DNA of 57,970 nucleotides, from the NCBI GenBank assembly GCA_030603385.1, contig JAUVXW010000030.1, positions 1-57,970 of the forward strand. The letters run 5' to 3'. This DNA is from Promethearchaeota archaeon. GTDB lineage: Archaea > Asgardarchaeota > Lokiarchaeia > Sigyniarchaeales > SOKP01. A program made the position numbers and the translations under genes. The notes beneath the pieces were generated by a model that was not told the DNA's origin, did not search any database, and worked only from the letters and a program-made list of their open reading frames with translations. Of the stretch, positions 18,094-42,512 are shown in pieces. The stretch's first letter is position 1, and each line of letters begins with the position of its first letter.

Positions 18094-18796
18094 GGAGAAA
18101 TCAGAATTGATTTGTGGTATAGACGAGGCTGGTAGAATATAATTCATTTCGAATTCTGTACCAAAAGGTCCCGTTCTTGGTCCTCTTGTTTTGTGTGGTG
18201 TTTGTTTTAAAAAAGATCAACTATCATATTTAGTTGAAATAGGTGTAAAAGATTCTAAGAAATTAAGTGCTAAAAGAAGGAGTACACTAGCAAAACTAAT
18301 TAAGGATAAGTGTCATTCTTTTAAAATTCTTATAGTTCCTCCAGCAGAAATTGATCAAAGGGAAGAAAAAAGAATTACATTGAATAAATTAGAAGAATTA
18401 AAAATGGCTGAAATTATTAGAGAATTAAAACCTAGCTCAATATATATTGACGCCGTCGATGTAAATGAAGATAGATTTAGAGATTCAATACTAAATCTTT
18501 TAGATTATAGTCCAGAAGAAATCATTTCAAAACACAAGGCTGATGATCTATTTCCCATAGTATCAGCGGCCTCAATCATTGCCAAGGATAAAAGAGACAC
18601 CTTAATTGAGGAAATGAAGGAAAAATATGGAGATTTTGGTTCGGGATATCCTTCGGATAAAAGAACTATTGATTTCCTTCGAAAATGGATAAAGAAGAAT
18701 AAAAAGATACCACATTTCGCTAGAAAATCATGGGCTACAACAAAAAAAATATTAGAAGAAGAACTATCTAACAGAAAAATAACTGATTTTTTCTGA
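18071..18796 (+). CDS. rnhB: Ribonuclease HII, interrupted by a 30-nt BHB intron (join 18071..18135, 18166..18796)
   Basis: LICGIDEAGR | GPVLGPLVLCGV is split by a 30-nt insert with in-frame TAA. GVKDSKKL, KADD..VSAASIIAK, GSGYPSD motifs. Start is TTG 18071 or 18107. Confidence 0.92.
18136..18165 (+). other. Putative BHB intron in rnhB mRNA (30 nt)
   Basis: Central helix TGGT/ACCA, 3-nt bulges AGA and AAA, internal stem ATATAATTC/GAATTCTGT. Confidence 0.85.
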
Positions 18797-18798
18797 TT

Positions 18799-19491
18799 TC
18801 ACTTTCTTTTAACTATTAAGACTATATGATTAGCAGCATATTTATGTATGTTTATACTTTCAAGGATATTATATCCTGCCTTTTCAAGAACTTTCTTTTC
18901 TTGAGCATACACAACTTCAGATTTTTGGATACTATCGATAGATTGAGACTTAATCGCGATAATTAATAATCCATTCTCTTTGAGATAATAATTACAATTA
19001 GTTAATGCGATTTCTGCTTGATTTGGTTGAGAAACATCTTGATAAATAAGGTCTATACTAGAAAAAATTGATTTAGCATAGTTTTGTGGATATCGAGCAT
19101 CATCTAATATCGGAATAATATTTTTTCTTCTTGATGTATTTTGTATTAGCTGTCTAATACTTCTTTCAGCAAATTCAACAGAATATATCACACCTGATTT
19201 TGCAATATCAGAAAGATGAGAAACGGTGGTACCAGATGATGCTCCCAAATACAAGCAATTTATATCTTCTGATAAAAAATTACTTATAGGTCTTTCCAAC
19301 AATAATGCTGCTAGCTTACTTCTATAAGGATCCCATTCTCTATACTCAATTCCTTTGTATAATACTAATTTCTCTCCATAAAATCTATTTCCTTTATCTA
19401 AATTTCTTGTATAAAGTTTAAGCTTACCCTTAGGCCCAGATATAAATACATTAAAAAATTTTGGATGATTTCTTATTTCAATCTTAGACAT
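18799..19491 (-). CDS. flpA: Fibrillarin-like rRNA/tRNA 2'-O-methyltransferase
   Basis: YREWDPYRSKLAA, LYLGASSGTTVSHLSD, DARYP, YQDVSQPNQ. Confidence 0.95.
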   Translation of the reverse strand: MSKIEIRNHPKFFNVFISGPKGKLKLYTRNLDKGNRFYGEKLVLYKGIEYREWDPYRSKLAALLLERPISNFLSEDINCLYLGASSGTTVSHLSDIAKSGVIYSVEFAERSIRQLIQNTSRRKNIIPILDDARYPQNYAKSIFSSIDLIYQDVSQPNQAEIALTNCNYYLKENGLLIIAIKSQSIDSIQKSEVVYAQEKKVLEKAGYNILESINIHKYAANHIVLIVKRK

Positions 19492-19508
19492 ATTTTAATT
19501 GAATTTCC

Positions 19509-20714
19509 TCATCTTTTCTTTTTAGGTTTTTTTTTTTTATTTTTTACAGGTTCTGTCTTTTTAGGTGGATTTGGATATTTTTCTTTAATTTCTTTAATTT
19601 TATTTTCAATCTCAATTGCCAATTTCTCTCCAATAAATTCACCAGAAAAATAATCAACTTTAGCCGATAATCCTATTTTCCCTGCGACTACTCTTGCGAT
19701 TTTACCTCTATGATAATATTTACTTCCCCTAATTTGATTCCATTGAAATATCAAGCCATGTTTTGGTCTTTTTTCTCCAGTTTTAAGAAAACGATAAAGT
19801 GCTTTTTCAGCTCCCAATAATTGAATTCTAGACGAGGGCATAAAAGCCAACTTTTTCAAACTACCTGCTTTTGCAATAAGTTTAGCACCTATTAATGATC
19901 CAATTATCGCATTTATATTAGGCGCAGATTTTTCCATTAGATCTGTTAAATAGTCTTCTAATCCTTGACGATATGAATCTAAAGAAACAATTTGGCTCGC
20001 ATAATCTTGAACTATTTTCAAATCAAAATTAGCTCCCATAGAGTCTGAAGCATATTTCTGTAAAATATTGATTTTATTTTCTGTGAATTCAAAATTGTTT
20101 TTAAGATTTTCATAAGTAAATTTCTCTCTTGCTCCTAAAAAAGAAACAATTTTAGCCAAAAGGATATTGTCCTCAACTATTTTATCAGTTAATTCAGGGA
20201 AGTGTAACCCATACCATTCTCTAAGATGACTAGAAAATAAGCTAATTGATTTCTTGATCACATCTAGTGTATTGATGATCTGAATTATCATGTTATCAGA
20301 ATGTCCACTCGCCTGGCTTACCTTTTTCTTGGTTAATACTTCGCTTATCTCTTTGTACTGTGCGAGAATCTCATCTTTCGATTTATTTATACCAACTTTT
20401 TTTAATTGGGTTTCCAAATTTAAACGAAAATTTTTAAGTTCGAGTGAAAAACCCTCAAAAATCGCTTTATATCCTAATATTTGTGATGTTAATGTTTGTA
20501 ATTCCTTGTTATCAAATATAAATTCATCAAAACCAGAATTTTTCAATTCTAATAAAAAATTTTCATATATACTCTGAATAATACCATTATCAATAGCATC
20601 ATAAAACTGAATTATTTTTTGTTTTTGATCATCAAAATCAATAAAATTTAGAATATTTCCAGTTTCATCAAATGCAAAAATTCCAACTAAAGTATCTGCA
20701 ATATATGATTTCAT
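19509..20714 (-). CDS. nop5: C/D box sRNP protein Nop5 (Nop56/58)
   Basis: REWYGLHFPEL, IQLLGAEKALYR, PKHGLIFQ; adjacent to fibrillarin. Confidence 0.95.
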   Translation of the reverse strand: MKSYIADTLVGIFAFDETGNILNFIDFDDQKQKIIQFYDAIDNGIIQSIYENFLLELKNSGFDEFIFDNKELQTLTSQILGYKAIFEGFSLELKNFRLNLETQLKKVGINKSKDEILAQYKEISEVLTKKKVSQASGHSDNMIIQIINTLDVIKKSISLFSSHLREWYGLHFPELTDKIVEDNILLAKIVSFLGAREKFTYENLKNNFEFTENKINILQKYASDSMGANFDLKIVQDYASQIVSLDSYRQGLEDYLTDLMEKSAPNINAIIGSLIGAKLIAKAGSLKKLAFMPSSRIQLLGAEKALYRFLKTGEKRPKHGLIFQWNQIRGSKYYHRGKIARVVAGKIGLSAKVDYFSGEFIGEKLAIEIENKIKEIKEKYPNPPKKTEPVKNKKKKPKKKR

Positions 20715-21181
20715 TTTTCTGATATGGTTCAGAGTTATTTTTTCTTCATTAATTATTATAAAATTATTTAAAAAATATTATAATTTTTTTTTTAATTGCT
20801 AAAATTCTTAGTGTTTAAAGTCTTAAAAGACTTTTTGTAAAAATTTATGAAATCGAAAAGTTCAATCCAAAAGAGAAAACGGTATACTTATACCACTAAA
20901 ATAAGAATTGTGAGATCCTATTTTAACAATCAGGTTTTATACTAGGTTTTAAACACGTTTATTATTCAGCGATTTGCTTTATTTTCTTGATACAGTTCTG
21001 CTTCTTTTCAGTAAAATTACAAATATACTAATTATTAAAGGGGCTACCAATTGCACATATTGTCATTATTTCATTATAACTTAGAATTTTATGAGTATAT
21101 TATCATAGAAATTATCAATCCATCGTGTTTATAAAGAATAAATATGAGTATGCATTATTAATTCAGAAGGTTGTTTTCCAT

Positions 21182-21358
21182 ATGAAAAACAAATTTGCTA
21201 TTACTTATGTATCGTGGGTTATAAGCCTTTTACTATATATGTGGGTCTGCTCTGTCACTTCAGAAACCCAAGAACAATTTTTTTATTTATTGAGTATTGG
21301 GACGATGATTAGTATGGTTTTTTTCTGCACACTCCTTATGTCTTTAACAGAAAATTAG
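21182..21358 (+). CDS. Small putative two-TM membrane protein
   Basis: ATG 21182, 58 aa with two hydrophobic segments. Confidence 0.4.
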   Translation: MKNKFAITYVSWVISLLLYMWVCSVTSETQEQFFYLLSIGTMISMVFFCTLLMSLTEN

Positions 21359-21534
21359 ATTAAATTAAAAAATGATATTTTTATAAAATTGGGAATCATC
21401 AAGTAAACTGAATTTCGCTGAGTTTCTGTTAGCCTTTTCCATTTGATTCTCGTTTTCTTCCCAAGCTCTCTTATTCAAATAACTATTATTAATAATAATT
21501 ATTATAAAATTATAATCATTATTTTCTTAAAAAA

Positions 21535-22461
21535 ATGCTTGGAATAAATCTTTCCGGTTTAAAATTAAAATCTCCACTCATTTTAGCCTCTGGAATTTTA
21601 GGAGTATCTTTTTCTTCAATGAAGAGAGTAATTGACGCTGGAGCTGGTGCTATAACAACCAAATCTATTGGTCCAACCTCAAGGAAAGGATATAAAAATC
21701 CATCTATAATCGAAATTTATCCCGGAACTTTTTTGAATGCAGTTGGTCTTGGGAATCCTGGAATAGATGATTTTATCTCAGAAATAAGAGAAATTAAGAA
21801 ATATAACATTCCATTAGTTGTGAGTGTTTTTGGGGATACTAATGACGTTTACCTTTATGTAGCTACTAAGGCTGTAAAAGCAGGTGCTGATGCCATTGAG
21901 ATTAATATTTCATGTCCTCATGCTGAAGTTGCTTCAATTGGTATTGATAAGGACTTGACATTTGAAATTGTCAAATTTTTGAAAGAAAAATTAACTGTTC
22001 CTCTTTTTGTAAAATTAAACCCTAATGTAACAAATATAAGCGAGATTGCATTGGCTGCTGAAAGAGGTGGTGCAGATGGTGTTGTAGCAATTAATACCTT
22101 AGCAGCTATGACAATTGATGTTAATACTCAAAGACCTATCTTATCTCACGGAAGCGGAGGTCTTTCTGGAAAAGCAATACATCCTATAGCAGTTAAAAAA
22201 GTATATGATTTATACAAAATTCTGAAAATTCCCATAATAGGATGTGGGGGAATAGATTCTTGGCAAGATGTCGTTGAATTCTTTCTCGCAGGAGCCTCAG
22301 CAGTACAAATTGGCACAGCTTTATACAAGGGTGCGGAAATTATTACTGAAATCAATGAAGGAGTAATTAGATATCTTAACACATATGAATATAAATCCAT
22401 AAATGATATCAAAGGTTTGGCTCATCAATTTAAAACTCAAGAGGTGCCTGATTTTGACTGA
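21535..22461 (+). CDS. pyrD: Dihydroorotate dehydrogenase family 1B, catalytic subunit
   Basis: ASG, TTKS, NAVGLGNPG, EINISCPH, GGLSG, IIGCGGI, AVQIGTA. Confidence 0.94.
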   Translation: MLGINLSGLKLKSPLILASGILGVSFSSMKRVIDAGAGAITTKSIGPTSRKGYKNPSIIEIYPGTFLNAVGLGNPGIDDFISEIREIKKYNIPLVVSVFGDTNDVYLYVATKAVKAGADAIEINISCPHAEVASIGIDKDLTFEIVKFLKEKLTVPLFVKLNPNVTNISEIALAAERGGADGVVAINTLAAMTIDVNTQRPILSHGSGGLSGKAIHPIAVKKVYDLYKILKIPIIGCGGIDSWQDVVEFFLAGASAVQIGTALYKGAEIITEINEGVIRYLNTYEYKSINDIKGLAHQFKTQEVPDFD

Positions 22462-23293
22462 AAACACCATTCAAACATTAAGAGTAAGTAGAATTAAAAA
22501 TGATTGTATAGGTGTTAAAACACTTATTTTCAAAAAACCAACAGAACTAAAACCAAAACCAGGTCAATTTGCGATGATCTGGGTTCCTGGTGTAGATGAG
22601 GTACCAATGTCTATTTCGGCTTGTGATGAGGCAAGTAATTGGGCTATTACTGTTAAAAATGTCGGCGAATGTACCCAATCGTTACATAATCTAACGATCA
22701 ATGATTATATTGGAGTGCGAGGACCATTAGGTAATTATTTCAAATTACCTACGGATAGAAAAAAAAATATCTTTTTGGTCGGTGGGGGTATAGGAATGGC
22801 ACCACTTAGGTTTTTAGCCCATGATCTAAATAAATCTGGTTATAATTTTAAAATTATACAAGGAGCTAAAGAAGAAAGCGATTTGCTCTATATGGATGAA
22901 TTTTATGATTATGATCGTGAAAGTTCAGAATTTCATTTTTGTACAGACGATGGAAGTTATGGTGAAAAGGGATTCGCATCAGATTTATTTGAAACTCTTA
23001 TTAAAGATTATACACCAGAACAATTCAAGAATACCGTTGTATATTCTTGTGGCCCTGAAATAATGATGTATAAATTGTTACAAAAATGCGAAAAGCATAA
23101 CATCGAATTTTATGCATGTCTTGAGAGGATTATGAGATGTGGCTGTGGATTGTGTGGATTATGTACATTAGATCCATTAGGGCTACTAGTTTGTAAGGAT
23201 GGACCTATATTTAGCTCAGAGGAATTAAAAAAAATCGAAGATTTTGGTAAATATAAGCGAGATTTTACTGGAAGAAAAATTTCATTAGAATGA
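22454..23293 (+). CDS. pyrK: Dihydroorotate dehydrogenase electron transfer subunit
   Basis: PGQFAMIW, GPLGN, GGGIGMAP, CGP, MRCGCGLCGLC..CKDGP; TTG 22454 after GAGGTG. Confidence 0.93.
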   Translation: MTENTIQTLRVSRIKNDCIGVKTLIFKKPTELKPKPGQFAMIWVPGVDEVPMSISACDEASNWAITVKNVGECTQSLHNLTINDYIGVRGPLGNYFKLPTDRKKNIFLVGGGIGMAPLRFLAHDLNKSGYNFKIIQGAKEESDLLYMDEFYDYDRESSEFHFCTDDGSYGEKGFASDLFETLIKDYTPEQFKNTVVYSCGPEIMMYKLLQKCEKHNIEFYACLERIMRCGCGLCGLCTLDPLGLLVCKDGPIFSSEELKKIEDFGKYKRDFTGRKISLE

Positions 23294-23366
23294 ATTCCTT
23301 TTATCATTTCAAACTATTCTTAATAACAATCAAATATTTTAAGAAATATAGATTATCTTTTTTGAA

Positions 23367-24995
23367 ATGGCCCCTATAGAGACTAAGAACTCTGAAAAAG
23401 TCAAACTTCTCTCAAGAGAAATAATAGAATATTTAACTACAAATCCACAAATTTCTAAAGATAAAGTTACAAATCTTAAAGGCCGAATCGGTAAGAAATA
23501 TAATTATAATAAGGTTATTAAAAATGCTACGATTTTGGGTTATGCAACGTCAAAAGAAAAATTAATCATTACTCAAATTCTTAAAAGAAGAAAAACTAGA
23601 ACATTATCTGGTGTATCTGTCATAGCTATTATGACAAAACCACTCCCATGTCCTGGAACTTGTATTTACTGTCCAGGATCTGATTCACAACCGGGTGAAA
23701 AAGTAGCTCAATCATATACCGGTAGAGAACCAGCAGCCATGAGATCTATTCACAATAATTATGATCCCTATCTTCAAGTTCAAAGTAGAATAAAAGATCT
23801 TGAAGTTATCGGTCATGATATAGATAAGATTGAATTAATCATTATGGGCGGTACATTTTTATCAACTGATTTAAATTACCAAGAAAGTTTCATTAAAGGT
23901 GCTATTGAAGGAGTCATTGAACAACGAGTAGAGAGTTTAGAAGAAGCTAAAAAGCTTGCTGAAACCTCTAAAAGAAGAATTGTGGGAATCACTATTGAAA
24001 CGCGGCCAGATTATTGTAAAGAAAAAGAAATAGACCGGATGCTTAATTTCGGAACAACTCGGGTTGAGCTTGGCATACAAACTGTTTATGATGATATCTA
24101 TAATTTGGTCAGGAGAGGTCATACCTCAGCTGACAGTATTGAAGCAATTAGATTAGCTAAAGATGCCGGATTAAAAATAAATGCGCACATGATGCCGAAC
24201 CTGCCTAGTGCAAGTCTCAAATCTGACTTAGAAATGTTTAATTCTTTATTCTCAAATGCTGATTACCGCCCAGACATGTTAAAGATTTACCCTACTGTGG
24301 TATTAAAAGGGACAGAATTATATGAATGGTGGAAACAAGGAAAACACTTACCATATTCTAATGAAGAATTAATTGATTTACTCGCGAATGTGAAGAAAAA
24401 TATCCCTTCATATGTAAGAATCCAAAGAATTATGAGAGACATTCCCGCATATTTAATTGAAGCTGGTTGTAATAAAAGCAATTTAAGACAATTAGTACAA
24501 GAAAAATTAAGAGAGACAGATGAATCTTGTAAATGCATAAGGTGTAGGGAATATGGTATAATTAAAAGAACACAACGTGATGAAGAGAGCTCTTTGAATA
24601 ATATTAAATTATTTCGATTCGATTATGAAGCATCCAACGGACAAGAAATCTTTTTGTCTTATGAGAATAATCAAGAGAATTACTTAGTTGGATATTTAAG
24701 ATTAAGAAAACCTTCAGAATTTGCCCATAGACCTGAATTAAATGATGGAAAAACAATGATCATTAGGGAAATCAAGGTAGTAGGTGAATTGGTCCCTAAA
24801 GACATGAAGCCAAGTCGACTCTCTCAAATCCAGCATAGAGGTTTTGGGAAGTTGTTAATGGAAAATGCGGAAAAGATATCAAGTGAAGAATTTGATGTTA
24901 AAAAGTTAGCTGTCATAAGCGGTATTGGTGTGAGGGATTGGTTCTATAAAATGGGTTATGAATTAGATGGTGTCTATGTATCAAAAACTATTTAA
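23367..24995 (+). CDS. elp3: Elongator protein 3 (radical SAM + GNAT), tRNA U34 acetyltransferase
   Basis: CPGTCIYCPG, QSYTGREPA, TIETRPD, KIYPT, QHRGFG, ISGIGVR. Confidence 0.95.
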   Translation: MAPIETKNSEKVKLLSREIIEYLTTNPQISKDKVTNLKGRIGKKYNYNKVIKNATILGYATSKEKLIITQILKRRKTRTLSGVSVIAIMTKPLPCPGTCIYCPGSDSQPGEKVAQSYTGREPAAMRSIHNNYDPYLQVQSRIKDLEVIGHDIDKIELIIMGGTFLSTDLNYQESFIKGAIEGVIEQRVESLEEAKKLAETSKRRIVGITIETRPDYCKEKEIDRMLNFGTTRVELGIQTVYDDIYNLVRRGHTSADSIEAIRLAKDAGLKINAHMMPNLPSASLKSDLEMFNSLFSNADYRPDMLKIYPTVVLKGTELYEWWKQGKHLPYSNEELIDLLANVKKNIPSYVRIQRIMRDIPAYLIEAGCNKSNLRQLVQEKLRETDESCKCIRCREYGIIKRTQRDEESSLNNIKLFRFDYEASNGQEIFLSYENNQENYLVGYLRLRKPSEFAHRPELNDGKTMIIREIKVVGELVPKDMKPSRLSQIQHRGFGKLLMENAEKISSEEFDVKKLAVISGIGVRDWFYKMGYELDGVYVSKTI

Positions 24996-25194
24996 CCCTG
25001 TATTAAAAATGATAAAGAGAGATTTAAAACTCAATAAAATTTCATCCCATATTAGTTATTAGAAAAAATATAAATTTAATCTTGCTCTAAGCAAATTTGT
25101 ATTTTCTAAAAATAAACATTTATTTCTTTATATTTTTATGTACAAGATAGTATAGGTTATATAGTTTTAAAAATTTTAAATGTGATTTAGTAAA

Positions 25195-26283
25195 ATGGCT
25201 TCAGAAAGACAATTATCAAAAAAGAAAACTACTCAGCAAACAATTTCAATTTCACCAGCTCTCAAAGCTCGAATAGAGAAATATGTGAATGATAATAATA
25301 AAAAAAATCCAAAAGATAATAGATTTAAAAGTATTTCTGCATTTTATAATTATGTTCTGGAGAAAACATTGGATTGTTTTGATAAAGGCAAGACTCTAGA
25401 TGATTTTGAAACATTTATAGACAGTAAAATTCAAAACTTTTTCGATAAAATCTCTTTTAATGCTCTAATTCCGTATTATGAGAATGCTGTTAAACCTAAT
25501 AGATACACGGATCCAACTTTTGAAAAGTTGCCCTTTTTATACTTAACAATAAGAAGACTATATTTCTCCATAATGGATCCTTATGACATCAATAGTATTA
25601 AAAATGTATTTAATAGATTAAAAAATTATTTGCTTTCGAATAATTTAACAAAAGAGTCGAATTTAGATCTTTTTACAGGCAAAAGTAAAACTGATTTAAC
25701 TGGAATCTTCGAGTTTAGTGGCATTTATCGGAATTTAAGTTTCGAGAATTTCAAATATATGGCAGCAATATTCGGATTACTAGGGGGAAAAATAACTAAC
25801 GGTTTATATTTGGAAAAAGATAATTACTGTAGATTCGATCTAAAAGCCACAGATTTATTTTTCAGAAAAGATTTGGCTAAGTCAGAGAGGATGAAGCTCA
25901 TAAACTATAATATTTCTCAGTTAATCAATTATATGAGAATTATTAATGATGATGATTATTACCTATGGATGAAAATGGCTGAAGATAAAAATAATTTCAT
26001 TTCTTTTAATAATTCAGAAGCTAGAAAGGAATGGTTTGATTTAATAGAAAGAGAACTTGAAAGATTCGGCGAAAAAGAGGATTATACACTCAATATGTTA
26101 AGATTTTTTGAAAGGTTACATTGGGTCGATGTCGAAAGTGAAAGTGAAAGAGAAATAATATTTCATATTCGATTATCAGAACCTAAAAATAAGGATGAAA
26201 TACAACTTTTAAAGAAGATTCTTTCAAGAAAATCGAAAATCTCGCAAAGAGATGGGAAACATTATCTAGAAAACATAAGCTAA
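25195..26283 (+). CDS. Hypothetical protein with putative N-terminal ribbon-helix-helix (paralog 1)
   Basis: TISISPALK..RFKSISAFY; full-length similarity to the next ORF. Confidence 0.75.
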   Translation: MASERQLSKKKTTQQTISISPALKARIEKYVNDNNKKNPKDNRFKSISAFYNYVLEKTLDCFDKGKTLDDFETFIDSKIQNFFDKISFNALIPYYENAVKPNRYTDPTFEKLPFLYLTIRRLYFSIMDPYDINSIKNVFNRLKNYLLSNNLTKESNLDLFTGKSKTDLTGIFEFSGIYRNLSFENFKYMAAIFGLLGGKITNGLYLEKDNYCRFDLKATDLFFRKDLAKSERMKLINYNISQLINYMRIINDDDYYLWMKMAEDKNNFISFNNSEARKEWFDLIERELERFGEKEDYTLNMLRFFERLHWVDVESESEREIIFHIRLSEPKNKDEIQLLKKILSRKSKISQRDGKHYLENIS

Positions 26284-26659
26284 AAATAATGGTCAAGGTA
26301 TTGTCAAAAAAAAAATGAGATCTCGTCCTCCTTAACCTTGCTATTTTCCCCCTTAATTTTGCCTTTATGGTAATGTCTCCTATCAATCCCCTTGATTTTT
26401 ATTGCCTAAAATAGCCCAATTATACTTTTTCGGGGGTACTTAAAAAGCATACTATTAGGTTTTAGTTTTCAAGATCATTAATCTAGATAATTAAAAACAC
26501 ACACACAATTATAAAAAGGGCACAAATAAACTATTAGGAAAAAATGTATCTTATAAAAGAATAATTAATCAATTAATTTTTATTTTATTTGATGAAATCT
26601 TAGAAAATTGAATTTTTCAACTAATATAATTTTAAAAATAATATTTCATTTAACTTATT

Positions 26660-33061: not shown

Positions 33062-33497
33062 TATTTCTTACCTTAACCCAAATCTTATGATATTAATTTT
33101 TTTAATAGTTTTTTTCTACACACAAACCTAATAATTTTTTTGTACACAGAGAAAATATTGGTGTAAAAAACTTTTTTAGTTATAACAAAAGATGCTATTC
33201 TAGTATATAAATCTTTTCGTTATAAAAATTCCTTTATATATGCACTATCTTTGTATAAAAAATTATCTAGGTAAATATTTTTGTTATGTTTTTCCTTGTA
33301 AAAAACTTATATCTTATTGTTTTTGAAACAATATATTATTATCGTGATATTATTTATTGTAAAAAATATTTGGCTATACTCAATTTTGTCGCCTTTTAGA
33401 TAATTGATGTGTTATAATTGTTAAATCACTACAAAAATGTTAAAAAATAGGAGTTATAAAAATATTGATATGTAATAAAAAATGCATACAATCATAA

Positions 33498-33515
33498 TTT
33501 GTATACAAAAACTTT
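33498..33515. promoter_or_regulatory. Candidate operator: palindrome TTTGTATACAAA (+AACTTT)
   Basis: Perfect 12-bp palindrome 33498..33509; GTATACAAAAACTTT recurs at 34816..34830. Confidence 0.45.
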
Positions 33516-33760
33516 CTATGATTATCTCATACTTGGTGAAAATTTTATTCCTACGTATAACCTTCAAAATTTAACTAATGAAAAAACATTAAATACAAGT
33601 TCTTTTATTAGGTTTTCAACTAAAACTATCGATAGCAATTAGTGGTCAAAAAATTCCACCTCCAAATAATACAGAGGAAAATACCGACAATTCTGAAGAC
33701 ATCTCGGAAGATGGGGATTTAAAAAAAATTGATAATAATTCCATTGAGAAAACTGAAGAG

Positions 33761-34603
33761 ATGAAAAGCTATGAAAGAGAAACTAATCGATATGCGGTGT
33801 GGCGCGGAGTAATAACTGAAGGTTTTAAAAAATGGCAAAAAGGAGAAAAGATTTATCAACGGGACAAAGAACGGATTTCTTTATATGTTTCTGAAGATAC
33901 TAAAGCGAAATGGTTAGATTATACCAAAAATGATGGTAGTTTAACTATTTCAAAATTAATTAGGGGAGCAGTAGACACATTCATTGAAAGTCAAGAGCAT
34001 TTAAAAGGTACTAAATTAGGCAAGTTAAACCCTGAAACCATTTCTAGCATTTCTCATACATTGAAAGAACCACTTACTTCGATAAAAGGATATTCGCAAT
34101 TACTTCTTGAGAATTACAGAGAAAAATTAAATGAACAAGTATTAGATACGGTAAAGAATATATTTGAGCAGAGTGTTCTACTTGAAAAGAAAATAATTAA
34201 TATTTTAGATAATATTAAGGTAAAACCTGAATATGATGTTCTATTAATCGAAGATGATTTATCAACCATTCGTCTTATTAAGAGTTATTTCGAAAGTAAA
34301 GGGATTAAATGTAAGGGTGTTGTTAGTGGTTCTAAAGGGTTGGAAGAATTAGGGAATGCTATTCCGAAGCTTATTTTGTTAGATATAATTTTACCGGATT
34401 TAAGTGGATATGATATATGTAAAACGATTAAGTCTGATAAAGAATATAAAAATATTCCAGTTTATTTCTTAACCGCAATATCTGGTTCTGAAGTGAAAAA
34501 GAATTTAGATGAAACTAATGCTGATGGCTATATATTAAAACCTTTTAATTTTTCTGATTTTGAAATTGTATTTGATATCTTAAAAGGTAAGAAAGAAAAA
34601 TAA
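33761..34603 (+). CDS. Response regulator with RHH-like and HisKA domains (no HATPase), paralog 1
   Basis: ERISLYVSE..TISKLIRGAV (RHH-like); ISHTLKEPLTSIKGY (HisKA); IEDD, ILLDIILPD, LTA, KPF (REC). Possible ATT start at 33638. Confidence 0.85.
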   Translation: MKSYERETNRYAVWRGVITEGFKKWQKGEKIYQRDKERISLYVSEDTKAKWLDYTKNDGSLTISKLIRGAVDTFIESQEHLKGTKLGKLNPETISSISHTLKEPLTSIKGYSQLLLENYREKLNEQVLDTVKNIFEQSVLLEKKIINILDNIKVKPEYDVLLIEDDLSTIRLIKSYFESKGIKCKGVVSGSKGLEELGNAIPKLILLDIILPDLSGYDICKTIKSDKEYKNIPVYFLTAISGSEVKKNLDETNADGYILKPFNFSDFEIVFDILKGKKEK

Positions 34604-34815
34604 ACAAATCTTTAAAATTTTCTTTTTACTGATTTCACAATCAACTAACTATAGTTCCTTATAAACCATATTTACATAACATATTAATATTTATAATAAA
34701 AAAGATTTATTAAATGATAAAAATATACAAATTATTGTAAACAATCATTTTATAGACGATTATTTTTATAAAAAAAGAAAGAAAATATAATAATAGATAC
34801 AAATTTTAATAAGAA

Positions 34816-34830
34816 GTATACAAAAACTTT
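34816..34830. promoter_or_regulatory. Second copy of candidate operator GTATACAAAAACTTT, overlapping a TATA-like TTTTATAA
   Basis: Identical 15-mer to 33501..33515. Confidence 0.45.
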
Positions 34831-34966
34831 TATAATATTTATTTTACAAATTTATCAAAGTAATAGTATTAAAACCTAGAGAGTTGGAGAGAAAATTTCG
34901 GGCGAAAAAAATAAAAATAAAAACAAAAAGGAAGAAAATACTGAAGACAATCCCGAAAGAGTTAGT

Positions 34967-35857
34967 ATGACAGATGAGGAGATCGCAAAGTTAGATTTAG
35001 AAAGCGCACATACTAAAGATTTAATGGAAATTTACCAAAAAGACACTGATAAATATGCAATTTGGCGTGGAACTATAACTGAGGGATTTAAAAAGTGGCT
35101 AAAAGGAGAGAAAATTTACGATCGAGATAAAGAAAGAATATCCTTATACGTTTCTGAGGAGACTAAAATCAATTGGCAAAACTTTAAGGAATCTCACGAA
35201 TATTCAACAATATCAGCATTAATTAGAGATAGCGTAGATTATTACATTGAGAAAAAGTCGGATTTACTGAGTGGTGGATTAAAAGGGATGAATGAAAAAA
35301 CTCTATCCAATATTTCACATGCCCTAAAGGAACCATTAACAACTATCAAAGGATTTAGCCAACTGCTTTTAGAAAATTATAAAGAGGAATTAGATGGAGA
35401 AGTATTATCGACTATTAAAAATATCTTTGATCAAAGTATGCTTCTTGAAAATAAGATTATTAGCATTCTAGATGATATAAACACGGATGAGATTGAGCCA
35501 CAGTATGATATACTATTAATTGAAGACGATTTAGCGACCATTCGGCTGTTGACCAGCTATTTTGAAAGTAAAGGTTATAAATGTAAAGGCGTAGTGAGTG
35601 GTACTAAAGGTATTGATGAACTAAGGGCTGGAGTACCTAAATTAATATTGCTAGATATTATTCTACCAGATATATCCGGTTACGAAATCTGCAAAATGAT
35701 TAAAGAACATCAGAAATACAAAGAAATCCCGATCTTTTTATTAACTGCTATACCTGGTAGTGAAGTCGAAAAGAAAATGCCTGAAACTAAAGCAGATGGC
35801 TACATTTTGAAGCCCTTCGATTTTTCCGATTTTGAAATATTATTTCAGCATATGTAA
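34967..35857 (+). CDS. Response regulator with RHH-like and HisKA domains (no HATPase), paralog 2
   Basis: Same architecture as paralog 1; possible ATT start at 34895. Confidence 0.85.
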   Translation: MTDEEIAKLDLESAHTKDLMEIYQKDTDKYAIWRGTITEGFKKWLKGEKIYDRDKERISLYVSEETKINWQNFKESHEYSTISALIRDSVDYYIEKKSDLLSGGLKGMNEKTLSNISHALKEPLTTIKGFSQLLLENYKEELDGEVLSTIKNIFDQSMLLENKIISILDDINTDEIEPQYDILLIEDDLATIRLLTSYFESKGYKCKGVVSGTKGIDELRAGVPKLILLDIILPDISGYEICKMIKEHQKYKEIPIFLLTAIPGSEVEKKMPETKADGYILKPFDFSDFEILFQHM

Positions 35858-35956
35858 ATCTTTTGAGCCAAAATCAAAATTTGCTTCTCATTTTATTAGT
35901 CTTATTTCTCAAGAAAATAATTAAGTTTGATATTAAATAATTTAAGAAATAAATCG

Positions 35957-36030
35957 CGGGCTATGAGGGATTTGAACCCCCGACCTGCCGGTTAAGAGCC
36001 GGTTGCGCTACCTGCCTGCGCCAATAGCCC
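35957..36030 (-). tRNA. tRNA-Lys(CTT)
   Basis: Acceptor GGGCTAT, anticodon arm ACCGG-CT-CTT-AA-CCGGC, T loop GTTCAAATC. Confidence 0.93.
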
Positions 36031-36066
36031 TTGCGTTTAGAATCAAAAGATTTCTTATTATATAGA

Positions 36067-36168
36067 CGCAGATGGAGGGACTCGAACCCCCGAGCGCTCA
36101 TGCGCACCAGCTCACTTGAATGTAAGAAATACTCAAGGCTGGCGTCTTACCAGCTAGGCTACATCTGC
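36067..36168 (-). tRNA. tRNA-Ser(TGA) with 19-nt intron at 37/38 (36113..36131)
   Basis: Acceptor GCAGATG/CATCTGC, anticodon stem CCAGC/GCTGG, long variable arm. Intron helix CTTG/CAAG with bulges AG|T and TG|A. Confidence 0.88.
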
Positions 36169-36303
36169 TAATTTTTTGACATTTATTGATTAACTTAGAT
36201 TATATTTATTATAATAAATTTTTTTTTGTTTTTTATTGCTTTATGCCTAATTCTGTCTTGTATTTAAAGAAAAATATAAATTTTATGCTACATTTTTAAA
36301 AAT

Positions 36304-36792
36304 ATGAGCGGGGCAAAAGATTTTCGTTACTTAATACCGGAAAGCTTATTTAAAGATATAACTCAAAAAGCAGCAGATGAATATCCGATGATTTGCCACG
36401 GCTGGTTGTTTGCCGATCGTAAGGAGAATTTCGGAATCTGCACTAAATTCATTATGAATACGGACTTACGCAAAAATAAAGTTCATGTAAAACCAAGAAG
36501 CTGGATGAGATATAAAAAATCTAAGATCTATAATATGCGGAAATTTAAACAAGAACTTGAGGTCGATATAGTGTGGCAATGGCACTCTCATCCGAGCGGT
36601 AACGAGAAGCTTCACGCTATTGATAAAAGAATCTTGAAATATCTCTCAAATGGGGTTATGATAATCGTCGTGCCAGCAGTACCAAATAGAGAGCCAGAAC
36701 AAAAAGCGCATCTTGTAGGGTGGTATTACGATAAACGATATACAAAAAAGCCGATCATCGAAAAAATGGTTTTTGAGATAATATCTGAATAA
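36304..36792 (+). CDS. JAB/MPN-domain protein
   Basis: WQWHSHPSG......D JAMM-like motif. Confidence 0.75.
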   Translation: MSGAKDFRYLIPESLFKDITQKAADEYPMICHGWLFADRKENFGICTKFIMNTDLRKNKVHVKPRSWMRYKKSKIYNMRKFKQELEVDIVWQWHSHPSGNEKLHAIDKRILKYLSNGVMIIVVPAVPNREPEQKAHLVGWYYDKRYTKKPIIEKMVFEIISE

Positions 36793-36903
36793 TTTAAATT
36801 TTATCCTTAAAATATTCCTTTTTCTTTTCTTTTTTGTGAGATAATAAAATATTAAAATTTTGAATCGTTATATTGAAATTGTATCATATCAAATAATTGC
36901 AAA

Positions 36904-36986
36904 GCAATCGTAGCAAAGCCTGGTATTGCGCTGGATTGCTAATCCAGTGTCCTACGGACTCGTGGGTTCGAATCCCACCGATTGCG
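36904..36986 (+). tRNA. tRNA-Ser(GCT)
   Basis: Acceptor GCAATCG/CGATTGC, CTGGA-TT-GCT-AA-TCCAG, long variable arm, GTTCGAATC. Confidence 0.93.
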
Positions 36987-36995
36987 CTCAATTAA

Positions 36996-37068
36996 GGGCC
37001 AGTGGTCTAGTGGTTATGACGCCTCGCTTACACCGAGGAAATCGGGAGTTCAATCCTCTCCTGGCCCA
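36996..37068 (+). tRNA. tRNA-Val(TAC)
   Basis: Acceptor GGGCCAG/CTGGCCC, CCTCG-CT-TAC-AC-CGAGG, GTTCAATCC. Confidence 0.93.
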
Positions 37069-37080
37069 CTATTATTAAAA

Positions 37081-37875
37081 TTAGTTATACAACTTTCTGA
37101 TTCTTTTCGGCTGTAATACACTAAACTTACAATTTTCTAGGTCTTTTCCAATATGAGAGATGATCCCTGGAGCATCGGAATCTTGTTTTAATAACACTAG
37201 ATTTTCTAAGAAACCAAATCTCTTTACGGTAATTATATCCCTAAAGTGACCTTTTCTCGCAATTGCTTTTTTAAATTGTCCCTTAGTCTCCCCACTTAAA
37301 ATTATAGCTTCTAGATTCTCATTCATAATCTTTTTAAAGAGGTTTAGCGAATTAGGGGCAATTTCTCCCTGAATTTTATGGTTTTCTTTATCTATTTTGA
37401 TAATTTTCACTTCTATAGGAAAATGATCTATAAAATCATAGGCTTCAATTATCTCTGTTAAAGACTTTTCACGCCCTTTACATAACTGATCTCTGAGCGT
37501 GTGTAAATTTATTAAAACATCAACTTGAGGGTTCATAATTCCACAATCCATAAATAAACCGAAACCAACTCTTCCTACATCAATAAGTGTACCCTTACAA
37601 ATGTCGCCCTTTTTGATATCCTTTAACTCTTTTATGCTCCCAATTTCATTTTTTAAGAGATTAAACACAAAAACCTCTTCAGGACCACTGATAGTTACTT
37701 CGAATCTCTTATCAAATTCTCTTAATTTTTTTATTTTCAATGTGGTATTTGGAAAACCTTTAACTCGCTCTCTTAAATACTTTAAGTATCTTAGGAATAT
37801 ATCTTCCTTTTTCCTTTCTTTAGAAACTATATAAATTTTATCAAATAAAACTAAATTTTTAACCATAGATAACAC
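37081..37875 (-). CDS. Conserved archaeal protein, DUF2110-like (S1-type fold)
   Basis: GTLIDVGRVGFGLFMDCG, GHFRDI, DAPGII motifs. Confidence 0.7.
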   Translation of the reverse strand: MLSMVKNLVLFDKIYIVSKERKKEDIFLRYLKYLRERVKGFPNTTLKIKKLREFDKRFEVTISGPEEVFVFNLLKNEIGSIKELKDIKKGDICKGTLIDVGRVGFGLFMDCGIMNPQVDVLINLHTLRDQLCKGREKSLTEIIEAYDFIDHFPIEVKIIKIDKENHKIQGEIAPNSLNLFKKIMNENLEAIILSGETKGQFKKAIARKGHFRDIITVKRFGFLENLVLLKQDSDAPGIISHIGKDLENCKFSVLQPKRIRKLYN

Positions 37876-38041
37876 AAAGTAGCTAAAAGCTAAAGGAATT
37901 TAAGTATTTTAATATGTAAAAGGTAAAATACTTTTCCTATATATCAAACTATAGTTTTTTTCGTTCTAAAAAGACTTAAATTACTAAATTATTATTTTTC
38001 AATGTAACTAAAAACAGATTTAATTTGATAGATGAAAAAGT

Positions 38042-38413
38042 ATGGAAGAGCAAAGATTTCAAGTATTAGTTAAAGCTTTAGAAGAACAAGAAGGAGTAGA
38101 AGAAATTTTTCTGTTAAATAGTGATGGAGAGGCTGTCTACAAGTCAGGAGATTTTCAATTATCCAATGAAGAAGCAAAAGCAATTCTTACTGCATGGAAA
38201 ACAAAAGAACCTGCCATTATGTTTCAAAACAATCGATTTGCAGTTTTAAAAAATGATGATATTCAATTAGCTGCTAAGAATATTGGTGGTGGAAAAGGCA
38301 ATATCGTTGGTTCAATTACAAAGGAAGGAGATTATTTAGTTGTGCACACTCGGGATGAGGGTCTGATCATATTAGAATGGTCAATTTTTATTAATAAAGT
38401 TGCATGGTCATAA
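38042..38413 (+). CDS. Profilin-like protein (Asgard type)
   Basis: 123 aa; IFLLNSDG, IMFQNNRFAVL, KNIGGGKGNIV pattern resembles Asgard profilins. Confidence 0.65.
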   Translation: MEEQRFQVLVKALEEQEGVEEIFLLNSDGEAVYKSGDFQLSNEEAKAILTAWKTKEPAIMFQNNRFAVLKNDDIQLAAKNIGGGKGNIVGSITKEGDYLVVHTRDEGLIILEWSIFINKVAWS

Positions 38414-38610
38414 TTTGCTATAATAATAAGATAAATAATTCAATCCTTCTCTACCTTGTTTTTTCAATCAAATTTTACTCTTTTTTTAAATTATTTAACC
38501 AATTCACACACACTTCTTCCTAAGAAACCTTATTATTTGATTGATTCTATTTAATAAAAATTCTGTTATGTTATATTCAACGAAAATCTTGAAAAGAAGA
38601 AAAAAAGAAT

Positions 38611-40926
38611 TTAACTAAATAGGTATCTAATAAACATTAAATTTTTACAGATCTTAGTGAATTCACTCTGTTCTCGCCTCCTATCACCGATACGCTGATA
38701 TCCAATCAAAACTCCGTTCTCTTTAAAAGAATTCATGACATTCACAATACTATCAGTATCACTACTATCATATAAAGATAAATCAAAATTTGCTACAACT
38801 GGAGCACTTACATAATCTTGCGTTTGCGGTCTTGAATTATAAAGATTTAATCCCTCACTAGAAGATAAACTCAAAGCACCAAATAATAAGTTGAATGCAC
38901 ATAAATCTTGTACCAAACTGCCGGAACTGTCCGTCTCACGTAATACAAAAGTCTGGTGATCAACTAAAAGACCGCCTAATATCTTTATAAAATCATCAGT
39001 AAAATCGGCTAGACTCTCTTGGTTAAGGATAAAAATTTGATCAGCTCCAGTATTCTCTGCATCTGGGAAAAATGTTAGATAAGATGCACGTCTCGAGTAC
39101 GCAAACCCGTCAAAATAAGTAGTGAAAGGACATATCTCAATATTATGCCCGTTTTGTAAGTCTGCAACCAATTTTTTCAAGAAATTTCCAAAGTTGACAA
39201 TCTCATTTCTTTGGGCTCTTAGAATGTTCTCTGTGTAATATTCTACAACTCCTTTATAAGGTGTCCTCCGTACCCCTTCGCCCTCTGTATGAGGATGAAT
39301 TCTTGCTGGATACAACGAATCAGTTATCAATTTCACATCCTTAGATTGAAAATAATTATTAAATATCAACGCATCCAGTTTAACGGCCTTCAAGCCCTCT
39401 AAAGTACTTGGGAAGCCAGACACTTTGAGCTTAAGGACGAACCACTTAGAATTATCTGCGCCTCCCGAGAGGAAATATTCTAATAATCGACCTCTTGTTT
39501 TTACACTTCCCTTATCTGCGAATATCATAAAGTTTAATGATTCTGCAATCATTAACAATAACATCGATTTCTGAGAAGGTGTGATTAAATTATCTCGGAT
39601 AGCCTTGTCAATTTTATCTTCATATATATCCAAAAAGGTGAAATATAGTTCTGCATTTCCAGGGACTCTTGTCTTAAAAGGATCCACTTGTCTATCAGGT
39701 ATAGTAAATACTTCTCTTGCTGTGATGTAGGATAAGAAATCATAGAAACTGGGGAGATTGCTTCTGGAAATCTCTGTCGCATCTTTATAAAGTGGAGCCC
39801 ACCTTTCTGTTGGAAGAGCTGGCATAAGATCAACAACAAAATCATTGAGCCCAGTCTGTAAATTTTCTGCTATTCCTAGAGTATATAGATCCAAGAGAAT
39901 ATTTTGAGCTCTGTAATATGTATTTCTGCTTAATAATTTTCCGAGTCTGGACTGTGGAATAATATCATGGAGCAATGAAATATGAGTATCTTTAGCGTGA
40001 GTGAAAAACGCTTGCCAAGTATGAGCGATAACTTGGGCATTATAATCTTTCGCAAACAGTGACCCTGTTCTAAAGGCAATGAAGGTAAACCTACCAAAGA
40101 TGGTGACTATTAATTCTTTTATTATCTTTGCTAATTGCAGATCATTATCATCAAAATATTGACCATCGGAAAAAGGAACTTTGGATTTAATACCTGAAGA
40201 CTTAATGAAAGCTTCATAATCCTTACCTTGATAAACATAGTCGGTGAAGATTTGATACCATGCTTTGTACCAGTCTTTTTCAGATTGCTTCTTTATTATT
40301 AAACTGCTGACTTTATATTCGTTACCTTCATTTCTTACATCGTTATAGCAAATCTTATATAATAAATTATTAGGATCTTTAAAGTTAATACCACCTAGTA
40401 AGTCTTTGAGTAGTTGTCCAACTTTTTCCAAGGTAAGACCCGAACTCACGATACCATTTTTTATAAAAGAATTTAAGTTGGAAAAAATATCATTAATAGG
40501 AAGAATTGAGGGAGTCTTAGTGGTAGCAAGCTGCATTGATATTAAACTATCAATCTTTGATAATAATTCTTTTGCTTCTGATTTCATCTCTTCAGTTATT
40601 CTATAGAAATTCAACCAATCAGTCTCAGTCAATTTTCCTTTTTTAGATTTAGAAAAGCCTTGAAAATCTGCGTAATACTCTTTAAAATATTTATATTTAA
40701 GATCATATTTCAAAAATGGTGATATCAGATTTGTCTTAGAGATTGCAATTTGATAAGAGTCTCCAAATCGAGTAAAAATGCTACTGACAACCTGAAGACC
40801 ATATTGTTTACCCCCAGTCTCCAGAATATTATCTTCAAACGCAGTTTTAACGTAGTAGTTATCCGACCACCATTCAACACCATAATCATTTATAACATCG
40901 TCTTTAAACATAAACCTGTTATACAA
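38611..40926 (-). CDS. Large hypothetical protein (771 aa or more)
   Basis: Uninterrupted 2.3-kb ORF; frame open about 43 more codons upstream. No recognised motif. Confidence 0.75.
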   Translation of the reverse strand: MYNRFMFKDDVINDYGVEWWSDNYYVKTAFEDNILETGGKQYGLQVVSSIFTRFGDSYQIAISKTNLISPFLKYDLKYKYFKEYYADFQGFSKSKKGKLTETDWLNFYRITEEMKSEAKELLSKIDSLISMQLATTKTPSILPINDIFSNLNSFIKNGIVSSGLTLEKVGQLLKDLLGGINFKDPNNLLYKICYNDVRNEGNEYKVSSLIIKKQSEKDWYKAWYQIFTDYVYQGKDYEAFIKSSGIKSKVPFSDGQYFDDNDLQLAKIIKELIVTIFGRFTFIAFRTGSLFAKDYNAQVIAHTWQAFFTHAKDTHISLLHDIIPQSRLGKLLSRNTYYRAQNILLDLYTLGIAENLQTGLNDFVVDLMPALPTERWAPLYKDATEISRSNLPSFYDFLSYITAREVFTIPDRQVDPFKTRVPGNAELYFTFLDIYEDKIDKAIRDNLITPSQKSMLLLMIAESLNFMIFADKGSVKTRGRLLEYFLSGGADNSKWFVLKLKVSGFPSTLEGLKAVKLDALIFNNYFQSKDVKLITDSLYPARIHPHTEGEGVRRTPYKGVVEYYTENILRAQRNEIVNFGNFLKKLVADLQNGHNIEICPFTTYFDGFAYSRRASYLTFFPDAENTGADQIFILNQESLADFTDDFIKILGGLLVDHQTFVLRETDSSGSLVQDLCAFNLLFGALSLSSSEGLNLYNSRPQTQDYVSAPVVANFDLSLYDSSDTDSIVNVMNSFKENGVLIGYQRIGDRRREQSEFTKICKNLMFIRYLFS

Positions 40927-41725
40927 TTTGTTCCCATTATGATCTGTTAAGATTACTTGATGAATATTTCCTGATGAGTCTAAATATCCTAGAACATAAC
41001 CTTTTTCAGCGATCTTGTAAGGATCATTACTACTGAATGGGAATATTCACACCACTCAATATTTAAGATTACCACAAAAGGCAAGAGATTTGCCCTCTAT
41101 TTATCCACCCATCATCCTTATTTGTTCAACAATTATCGTCATTTTGACTTGGAAGACATATATGCGCAATATAAACGTCATTCCTCACGGGTAACACTAA
41201 TAAGATATCTCCTGTTTTTTTTCTTAGGTATCCTAATTTTTAGCCTGTTAGCAGGTGCCATTATTCTAATAGGTATTAGTCTCAAAGGAATATTATGGGT
41301 ACCTCAAATTTCAACTCAATGCTCTATTCAATGTCATAGGTGCCTATTGGCATTGATGTGATAAGGGATAAATATTCGTAGCAGTAAGGGTTTCATTTGA
41401 CGAAAAGCTGGGGGAGAACTAGAGTAAAAGTTGTCTTGTAGTTTAGTAAAATAAGAATTTCCCTTTTTTCTCCATATAAATAATAAGGTTTCTTAGGATT
41501 GTTTATTGCCTCTAAACTTTTTTGTTTAAAATCTCTAAATTTTTTGGTTTAGTGTTTTGTCTTAATTTTTATATTTTAGTATTTTTTATATAGACAAAAT
41601 ATAAATTTCATTAATTATTTCATTGTTCATAATAGAATTAAAAAGAAATGTAAAAAAATAACATAAATTAAAAGAATTAAGTAAATGTTTAAGGATTTTA
41701 ATCCAAATAAGGAGGTTATTAAAAA

Positions 41726-42512
41726 ATGTTTCAGCAAGCAGGACGCGGGTATGATATGGCTATTACGCAATTCTCACCCGAGGGACGGCTTTTTCAAGTT
41801 GAGTATGCTATTGAAGCCGTTCGAAGAGGAACAACCGCAATAGTGTGTCGGAATAAAAGCTCTGTTGTGTTTGCGGTTGAGAAAAAGAGCTCTGAGCTTC
41901 AAGAACAAAGCATGGGTTCGGAAAAAATATTTAAAATTGACGACCACATTGGCGTAGCTATTGCAGGATTGACCGCGGACGCTAGAGTACTAATCTTAAG
42001 TCCCACAGGCGACTGAGAGTACTAATCGATCGCGCCCGCGTTCAAGCTCAAGTTAATTTATTGAATTATGATGAGAAAATCTCTGTGAAGGACAGCACGA
42101 TAAATATTTGCGAGTATAAGCAAGTATTCACTCAAAACTAGGCGGAGCTTATCCGTTAGTGAGCCATGCCGGTGTGCGACCTTTTGGAGTTTCTTTTCTG
42201 ATTGCTGGAATTGATGCAAATGGACCCTCCTTATATCTCACTGATCCGAGTGGAGCTTTTTGGAATTATTTCGCCTTCGCTATCGGATCGGGTTCGACTG
42301 AAGCAAGGGCTTACCTTGAAGAACATTATAATAAAGATATGAGTGATGAGGAATTAAAATTATTACCCTTAAGAGCTCTCAAGGAATTGATGGATGATAA
42401 TTTAGATAAAAATACATGTGATGTAGCTTTTATATTGAAAGAGGATAAAACGTTTAAACTTCTAAGTTTAGATGAAGTGGAAGAATTACTAAGTAAATTA
42501 TCAGATTCCTAA
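41726..42512 (+). CDS. psmA: Proteasome subunit alpha with two BHB introns (join 41726..41992, 42025..42136, 42166..42512; 241 aa)
   Basis: [20 protein letters not shown]; spliced [10 protein letters not shown]|IDRARVQAQ...KQVFTQ|[10 protein letters not shown]; TDPSG, AIGSG. Located upstream of sdo1-rrp4. Confidence 0.93.
41984..42027 (+). repeat. 12-bp direct repeat AGAGTACTAATC (41984..41995 and 42016..42027)
   Basis: Exact repeat spanning both splice junctions of psmA intron 1. Confidence 0.95.
41993..42024 (+). other. Putative BHB intron 1 in psmA mRNA (32 nt)
   Basis: Central helix GTAC/GTAC, bulges TAA and TAA, inner stem TCTT(A)AGTC/GACTGAGA. Confidence 0.87.
42137..42165 (+). other. 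Putative BHB intron 2 in psmA mRNA (29 nt)
   Basis: Central helix CTCA/TGAG, bulges AAA and CCA, inner stem CTAG(G)CGGA/TCCGTTAG. Confidence 0.87.

Follow-up and report, generated by a model that had tools for sequence, protein, structure and literature searches.

How can two conserved housekeeping genes give rise to full-length proteins when their reading frames are broken by short inserts? This question is raised by contig C17 of an Asgard archaeal genome, in which rnhB, encoding ribonuclease HII (RNase HII), is broken once and psmA, encoding the proteasome alpha subunit PsmA, is broken twice. Comparison of this DNA with that of its relatives makes it very likely that the three inserts are archaeal bulge-helix-bulge (BHB), or tRNA-type, introns that reside within protein-coding mRNAs. 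The window that we analyzed is the entire contig of 57,970 bp, which belongs to a genome of 3.89 Mb in 58 contigs with ~30% G+C (G000, the genome under study; other G and L numbers denote the genomes and loci with which it was compared). Homologues of the RNase HII exon bear the names Promethearchaeota or Lokiarchaeota, which bears out the assignment of the host to the Asgard archaea made in the initial annotation of this DNA. The exons and inserts of the two genes are as follows.

18107..18135, + strand: rnhB exon 1; TTG start, encoding M-ICGIDEAG plus the first two bases of an Arg codon
18136..18165, + strand: candidate rnhB BHB intron; 30 nt, canonical hBHBh' form, in-frame TAA at 18140-18142
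18166..18796, + strand: rnhB exon 2; last base of the Arg codon, then GPVLGPLV through to a TGA stop
41726..41992, + strand: psmA exon 1; ATG start, Pfam Proteasome_A_N and Proteasome
41993..42024, + strand: candidate psmA BHB intron 1; 32 nt, following ...ADARVL, missing in 19 congeners
42025..42136, + strand: psmA exon 2; 112 nt, would be reported by no open reading frame (ORF) caller
42137..42165, + strand: candidate psmA BHB intron 2; 29 nt, following ...QVFTQ, in-frame TAG at 42139-41
42166..42512, + strand: psmA exon 3; part of the predicted spliced 241-aa PsmA

The initial annotation described three inserts of 30, 32 and 29 nt with BHB geometry, and we confirm these at 18136-18165, 41993-42024 and 42137-42165. 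In a canonical BHB, the 4 exon bases immediately preceding the 5' bulge are paired with the 4 of the intron that immediately precede the 3' bulge, and each 3-nt bulge is cut behind its second base. The control for this geometry was the intron of tRNA-Ser(TGA) at 36113-36131 on the minus strand, a true substrate of the tRNA intron endonuclease EndA within the window that is recovered by the same definition. As decoy we used the mirror image, in which the central helix lies 3' of the cuts. All three inserts exhibit four of four central pairs, 3-nt bulges on opposite strands and an inner stem of 3-5 contiguous pairs (longer if a mismatch or bulge is allowed), with outer helices of 1 bp (rnhB), 2 bp (psmA intron 1) and 2 bp (psmA intron 2). 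For rnhB, the central helix is formed by TGGT (18130-33) and ACCA (18160-63), with AGA (18134-36) and AAA (18164-66) as bulges; bases 18137-45 and 18151-59 make up the inner stem, with one mismatch, and the single outer pair is C-G. For psmA intron 1, GTAC at 41987-90 pairs with GTAC at 42019-22, both bulges are TAA and the inner stem is at least 5 bp, while psmA intron 2 has a central helix of CTCA (42131-34) and TGAG (42160-63), bulges AAA and CCA and an inner stem of 4+4 bp.

The intron lengths implied by these motifs are 30 nt for rnhB and 32 and 29 nt for psmA. As had also been claimed initially, cuts placed behind the second bulge base restore the reading frame together with the motifs DEAGR|GP, ARVL|IDRAR and FTQ|NAGVRPFG, and removal of the inserts yields an RNase HII of 219 aa and a PsmA of 241 aa, both free of stops. 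The junction of psmA intron 2 (CAA A|AT GCC) reads QNA as in all orthologues. More generally, intron-less alleles of relatives fix all of the junctions independently, at the very positions of the BHB cuts. Genome-wide, ~6e-4 of (position, length) pairs show a BHB of such stringency and the junctions are fixed independently, so the three BHB hits are not due to chance; by our own arithmetic the chance of three hits at pre-defined junctions is about 1e-8. Folding energies of the three regions are unexceptional, with z-scores of -0.2 to -2.1, and support for the fold thus comes from its geometry and covariation and not from its stability. The intron sequences have no further copies elsewhere in the genome. 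Several other BHB candidates in the window (48672-, 14379-, 14372-, 34688+, 56384+, 55887- and 2075+, the sign giving the strand) were rejected as weak and as giving implausible peptides. We also rejected a spliceosomal-type, GT-AG micro-intron, as no GT-AG pair yields the conserved junctions.

The history of the rnhB insert is recorded in a large set of relatives. For 110 genomes of the order we extracted the region spanning exons 1 and 2, and 109 of these could be classified. An insert is present at the identical site in 59 of the 109, with the same length of 30 nt in 55 of these 59, and it is precisely missing in the other 50, including all 16 genomes from the three other families. This presence/absence comparison of orthologues had been proposed in the initial annotation. 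By genus, the intron is found in 32/32 genomes of g1, 4/4 of g12, 4/4 of g17, 14/33 of g14, 3/5 of g15, 1/6 of g16 and 1/1 of g19. In intron-less genes the sequence is ...GAxGCxGGxAGA|GGx, in agreement with the junction that the bulges predict. The position of the start codon is common to the relatives (it is ATG in G119), and exon 1 is retained at the protein level in 59/59 intron-bearing genomes. Additionally, the Pfam RNase_HII match covers both exons of what is the sole RNase HII gene in the genome; the initial annotation had considered an intact copy elsewhere, and rnhB is single-copy. Relative to the nearest relative, G019, which is 94-97% identical to this genome, the rnhB intron is identical and the exons have a ratio of nonsynonymous to synonymous substitution rates (dN/dS) of 0.155. 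The rnhB intron, spread over seven genera of one family, is old and has been precisely lost or gained many times.

The sequences of the rnhB intron are strongly divergent among genera but the fold is kept. In an alignment of the 59 sequences, 87.6% of pair cells are standard pairs versus 78.3% in column shuffles; none of 500 shuffles reaches the observed pairing, and sliding the partners by 1-3 columns gives 24-45%. Changes on both sides are seen for 10 of 17 pairs overall, comprising 2 of 4 in the central helix and 8 of 9 in the inner stem. The two variable positions of the central helix are the third bases of the exon 1 Ala (GCN) and Gly (GGN) codons, and synonymous changes at these third positions are matched by changes in the intron. 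The alignment thus shows coding and structural constraint acting on the same bases of rnhB.

The psmA introns present a different picture of distribution. In DNA alignments with the 19 congeners whose psmA is contiguous, the gaps measure exactly 32 and 29 nt and fall on the predicted junctions. Among 135 genomes of the family that were searched, G076 and G089, both congeners, stood out by the same short open frame; they have a 29-nt intron at psmA site 2 and none at site 1. Their intron 2 is identical to that of G000 at 18-19 of 29 positions with all stem pairs kept, the compensations being C-G to U-A and G.U to A-U (three compensated pairs in three sequences). The copies of intron 1 are too alike for a covariation analysis. 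Both psmA introns are present in identical form in a JGI contig and an ENA contig, while Logan contig SRR30965928_268427 carries a related psmA allele in which intron 1 is 32/32 identical and intron 2 is precisely missing. Intron 1 thus has one and the same sequence in L164, L165 and L181, which are independent assemblies; two of these carry both introns and the third, L181, is without intron 2. All four combinations of presence and absence of the two psmA introns therefore occur among closely related alleles.

The flanks of these introns are informative as to how the combinations may have arisen. The G000 and Logan alleles are near-identical around intron 1 and match at 316/318 positions over the last 318 nt, and they differ at 13 of 61 positions in a ~90-nt patch centered on intron 2, within which G000 is closer to the intron-2-bearing than to the intron-less genomes. 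This pattern fits the trace expected of recombination with a short co-conversion tract, whether as gain by transfer or loss by conversion, and the mosaic flanks suggest homologous recombination, acting at the DNA level, as the means by which the introns were transferred or removed. Relative to G019, the psmA region has a synonymous divergence (dS) of 0.65 and ~90% DNA identity, as compared with a dS of 0.037 and 97% for the rnhB region, and the G000 genome is a mosaic around psmA. The psmA introns are young and mobile-looking elements. The exons themselves, including the 112-nt middle exon, are under strong purifying selection: whole-gene dN/dS versus G019 is 0.049, and exon 2 has 14 nucleotide differences with 2 amino-acid changes.

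Intron 1 of psmA has further structural features. Beyond its 2-bp outer helix there is a further exon-exon helix of 9 positions with one A.C mismatch (CGCGGACGC/GCGCCCGCG), which is built by synonymous changes in the alleles that bear intron 1 and is missing from intron-less alleles. An exact 12-nt direct repeat, AGAGTACTAATC, at 41984-95 and 42016-27 flanks the 20 unique bases of the intron, and the palindrome GTAC within this repeat forms the central helix. No nuclease gene was recognizable near psmA. As to a homing-endonuclease cassette, the introns are too short to encode anything, and the mosaic flanks fit recombination and name no nuclease. A segment of ~3 kb directly upstream of psmA (38503-41552) is missing at that place in G019. 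It includes a G000-specific 771-aa ORF (38611-40926, minus strand) to which Pfam and NCBIfam assign nothing. Elsewhere in G089 there is a homologue of 28% identity, and the ORF does not adjoin psmA in G076 or G089. A separate observation concerns the closed congener G006, which has only the C-terminal 100 PsmA residues at the locus (G006:C1:293060-293368; L166/L177). The N-terminal part was not found within 3 kb upstream, which suggests a larger insertion or rearrangement at ~residue 139.

Cleavage and ligation by the tRNA splicing enzymes, the route named in the initial annotation, requires that the enzymes be present, and the genome does encode them. There are two EndA paralogues of ~200 aa each with N and C tRNA-intron-endonuclease domains (PF01974/PF02778; genes C44:18795-19019 and C9:36254-36502), and one RtcB gene (PF01139; contig C39). 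The two paralogues fit the published description of Asgard EndA as an (alpha-beta)2 enzyme with a broad-specificity L1 loop (PMC5829648). The window also contains an intron-bearing tRNA gene:

36067..36168, - strand: tRNA-Ser(TGA) gene; 19-nt canonical BHB intron at 36113-36131, Rfam tRNA match, recognized by ARAGORN with intron search

This gene was missed by ARAGORN at default settings; its intron was located by the BHB scan, after which the spliced form was recognized by ARAGORN. In the whole 3.9-Mb genome ARAGORN recovers only 18 tRNA genes, 7 of them with introns, so most tRNA genes in G000 are probably too interrupted for recognition. These numbers are in line with the report that Asgard tRNA genes are heavily interrupted by introns (bioRxiv 10.64898/2026.10.13.758758).

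On the basis of the covariation and the precise presence or absence of the inserts across relatives, we infer that the mRNA is cut and joined. After transcription, the end of the upstream exon would pair with the 3' end of the intron, giving rise to a 4-bp central helix between two 3-nt bulges. The (alpha-beta)2 EndA would then cut after the second base of each bulge, and RtcB would join the exons and probably circularize the 29-32-nt intron. Full-length RNase HII and PsmA would be translatable only after splicing.

Introns of this type do not appear to be confined to the window. In a paralogue test, the peptide obtained by joining two exons must align to a paralogue from another part of the genome with no gap over the junction. 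Both psmA introns were recovered in this way along with three further BHB introns, and a fourth was identified in a small GTPase. There, the junction covered by the paralogue alignment has the decoy geometry and the same length, and the BHB was placed by hand.

C26:94205, + strand: intron in the small subunit of a B12-dependent mutase; 28 nt, central helix GGCT/GGCT, inner stem 9 bp, outer helix 5 bp, gap-free paralogue alignment
C46:6067, + strand: iorB intron; 31 nt, gap-free paralogue alignment across the BHB junction
C5:48564, + strand: alba intron; 31 nt, gap-free paralogue alignment across the BHB junction
C1 ~11470, - strand: intron in the P-loop of a small GTPase; 30 nt, central helix GATT/GATC, no outer pair

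Each of these four 28-31-nt introns lies within a conserved motif. For example, removal of the mutase intron restores GLDGHDRGAK, the B12-binding DxHxxG motif. There are thus at least seven such introns in six genes of G000, with two in one gene and all within 28-32 nt. Repeats that comprise the helix plus the bulge are found not only in psmA intron 1 but also in the mutase (GGCTTGA / GGCTTAA) and GTPase (ATTACTGTC / ATCATTGTC) introns, and these may be a footprint of intron origin via duplication or a target-site repeat.

Several observations weigh against this interpretation. The case for excision and ligation is drawn from comparison of DNA and not from RNA. The outer helix at rnhB is only 1 bp long, so that the motif is relaxed on its exon side. 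Among the listed members of two 90% clusters, which come mostly from DNA assemblies, no protein matched the G000 exons identically in contiguous, spliced form. Finally, a genome-wide scan that combined BHB detection with ORF joining gave no excess over the decoy, also when a hexamer coding score was included; for example, lengths of 28-32 nt gave 170 canonical versus 162 decoy cases. In such a census the signal is drowned by neighboring genes and short open frames, and true exons are often short. The null result reflects a failure of the method and does not speak for rarity. The decoy itself is contaminated as well, since real introns can satisfy the decoy geometry a few bases away. The paralogue-spanning test, run over 44,661 candidates, likewise gave no length peak, and single convincing cases were picked out from it. 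The initial suggestion of many such introns genome-wide is therefore upheld as far as at least four additional verified cases, the census having given no more than the decoy level.

Other explanations for the inserts also have to be considered. They could simply be disruptive, with the genes being pseudogenes or giving rise to truncated proteins from downstream starts and nothing being spliced. Each insert does bring a stop or a frameshift, and public annotation does consist of shorter ORFs. We nevertheless consider this most unlikely, as the rnhB insert has been maintained at a single site across seven genera (59 genomes), its fold preserved by compensatory changes, the protein sequence encoded by the exon with the catalytic DEAGR is retained, rnhB is the sole RNase HII gene, the psmA exons (including the uncallable 112-nt one) are under strong purifying selection, and three chance BHBs at the exact junctions would have a likelihood of ~1e-8. 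Together, the conserved fold, the exact intron-less junctions, the single-copy status of rnhB and the psmA dN/dS of 0.05 argue that the inserts reflect biology and not decay. Elements that are bypassed by the ribosome during translation, without RNA splicing, are known from T4 gene 60 and as the byps of yeast mitochondria; they are stop-containing inserts of ~30-50 nt that are missing from the protein. The 29-32-nt inserts are similar to byps in size and in being short, stop-containing coding inserts, and the 12-nt repeat around psmA intron 1 could supply matching take-off and landing codons. Bypass requires such matched codons, not a BHB, and these are lacking at two of the three sites, as neither rnhB (AGA...AAA|GGT) nor psmA intron 2 has them at its conserved-protein junction. 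Moreover, the part that covaries is the BHB pairing of exon end with intron end, which bypass does not need, and the same geometry fits the true tRNA intron in the window. We therefore regard translational bypass as barely conceivable.

It could also be that EndA cuts mainly to regulate or destroy the mRNA, splicing being conditional or inefficient and the inserts acting as expression gates. A BHB intron in a 5' untranslated region (UTR) of Haloferax does affect expression of HVO_1309 (PMC7714728), and with the inserts located in essential catalytic motifs an unspliced mRNA would give no active protein. Sequence does not separate gating from constitutive splicing, but related genomes lack the introns, so no conserved regulatory need is evident, and we think it very unlikely that gating is their main role. 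As for artefacts of assembly or chimerism in a metagenome-assembled genome, G000 is a 58-contig bin with ~7% estimated contamination. However, the same psmA introns are present in independent JGI, ENA and Logan contigs, which excludes the assembly artefact that the initial annotation had provided for, and the rnhB intron is present in 58 other genomes; the probability of this explanation is practically nil.

In the searchable literature, which leaves subscription-only papers outside its coverage, we found no report of mRNA introns in Asgard archaea, Lokiarchaeota or Promethearchaeota. The sole BHB intron reported there within an archaeal coding sequence is that of crenarchaeal cbf5 (PMC2738675), and a 2020 study describing one 5' UTR BHB intron in Haloferax names cbf5 as the only other case (PMC7714728). 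The precedents in searchable papers, none of them from the lineage for which the initial annotation had called for a literature check, are thus limited to these two. The cbf5 intron, in the crenarchaeal gene for a pseudouridine synthase (Watanabe 2002; Yokobori 2009, PMC2738675), is similarly a short BHB intron within coding sequence, with patchy gains and losses among related lineages and a host that has a hetero-oligomeric EndA. In contrast to the present introns, for which splicing is deduced from sequence, its splicing by the tRNA machinery has been experimentally shown. The introns described here also reside in other genes and in the Asgard phylum, number at least seven in six genes and fall in a narrow 28-32 nt class. 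With rnhB and psmA as hosts, those in the window do not belong to the cbf5 intron family, as they share its workings without being that orthologous intron. The Haloferax volcanii HVO_1309 intron (PMC7714728) is likewise an EndA mRNA substrate outside of tRNA and rRNA, but it is a single case located in an untranslated leader, where no frame is interrupted, in a euryarchaeon with a homodimeric enzyme. The BHB introns of archaeal tRNA and rRNA, including those in the heavily interrupted tRNA genes of the Asgard group (bioRxiv 10.64898/2026.10.13.758758), are alike in motif, enzymes and repeated gain and loss, whereas the host RNA here is a messenger. Consequently, excision must be base-exact to keep the frame, and the exon partners of the pairing are codon-constrained.

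There is also a partial likeness to the cytoplasmic splicing of HAC1 and XBP1 mRNA, in which Ire1, a protein-only endonuclease, cuts two mRNA loops and the exons are joined by tRNA ligase or RtcB with a change of frame. The proposed mechanism likewise involves an endonuclease cut followed by joining of mRNA exons by a ligase. HAC1/XBP1 splicing differs in using Ire1 and a stem-loop motif and in having a regulated single target, and no homology is implied.

What is new here is how many genes are involved, the lineage in which they occur, the narrow range of intron sizes and the observable dynamics of gain and loss. If this interpretation is correct, then splicing of mRNA by EndA and RtcB recurs among essential Asgard genes and is not a one-gene curiosity of cbf5. 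With respect to the selfish insertion or splicing-gated control put forward in the initial annotation, the patchy, recombination-like distribution that we observe fits elements that are mobile or easily lost. We see roughly even chances for a broader proposal, namely that the Lokiarchaeia, which are among the closest prokaryotic relatives of eukaryotes, routinely splice coding mRNAs with tRNA machinery. In this proposal endonuclease-less BHB mini-introns of 28-32 nt colonize conserved housekeeping motifs, are spread and erased by homologous recombination with short co-conversion tracts and drive synonymous exon changes that improve their own excision. Dated and precise gains and losses, four intron combinations and co-adapting synonymous sites would make this a tractable system for studying the origin and movement of protein-spliced introns. 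Additionally, coupling of transcription and translation in these cells would have to tolerate or avoid unspliced messages, an issue that bears on ideas as to why intron-bearing genomes separate transcription from translation and hence on eukaryote origins.

There are also consequences for annotation. In public databases the RNase HII of this clade is entered with 198-216 aa and starts after the intron, so that it lacks the catalytic DEAGR first exon, while psmA is called as fragments and its 112-nt exon is invisible to gene callers. The initial annotation had expected such genes to be mis-annotated as split pseudogenes; they are indeed mis-called, but mostly as shorter, intact-looking ORFs. 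If the introns are spliced as proposed, inferences on Asgard gene content and on "pseudogenes" are therefore biased.

With regard to the surroundings of rnhB, the gene adjoins those for fibrillarin and Nop5 of the C/D-box ribonucleoprotein (18799-20714, minus strand). Between nop5 and pyrD there is a 726-nt segment (20768-21493) that is single-copy in the genome and missing in all five congeners that were compared. It contains only a 77-aa ORF to which no family was assigned, and its ends share a ~17-nt AT-rich direct repeat, AATTATTATAAAATTAT.

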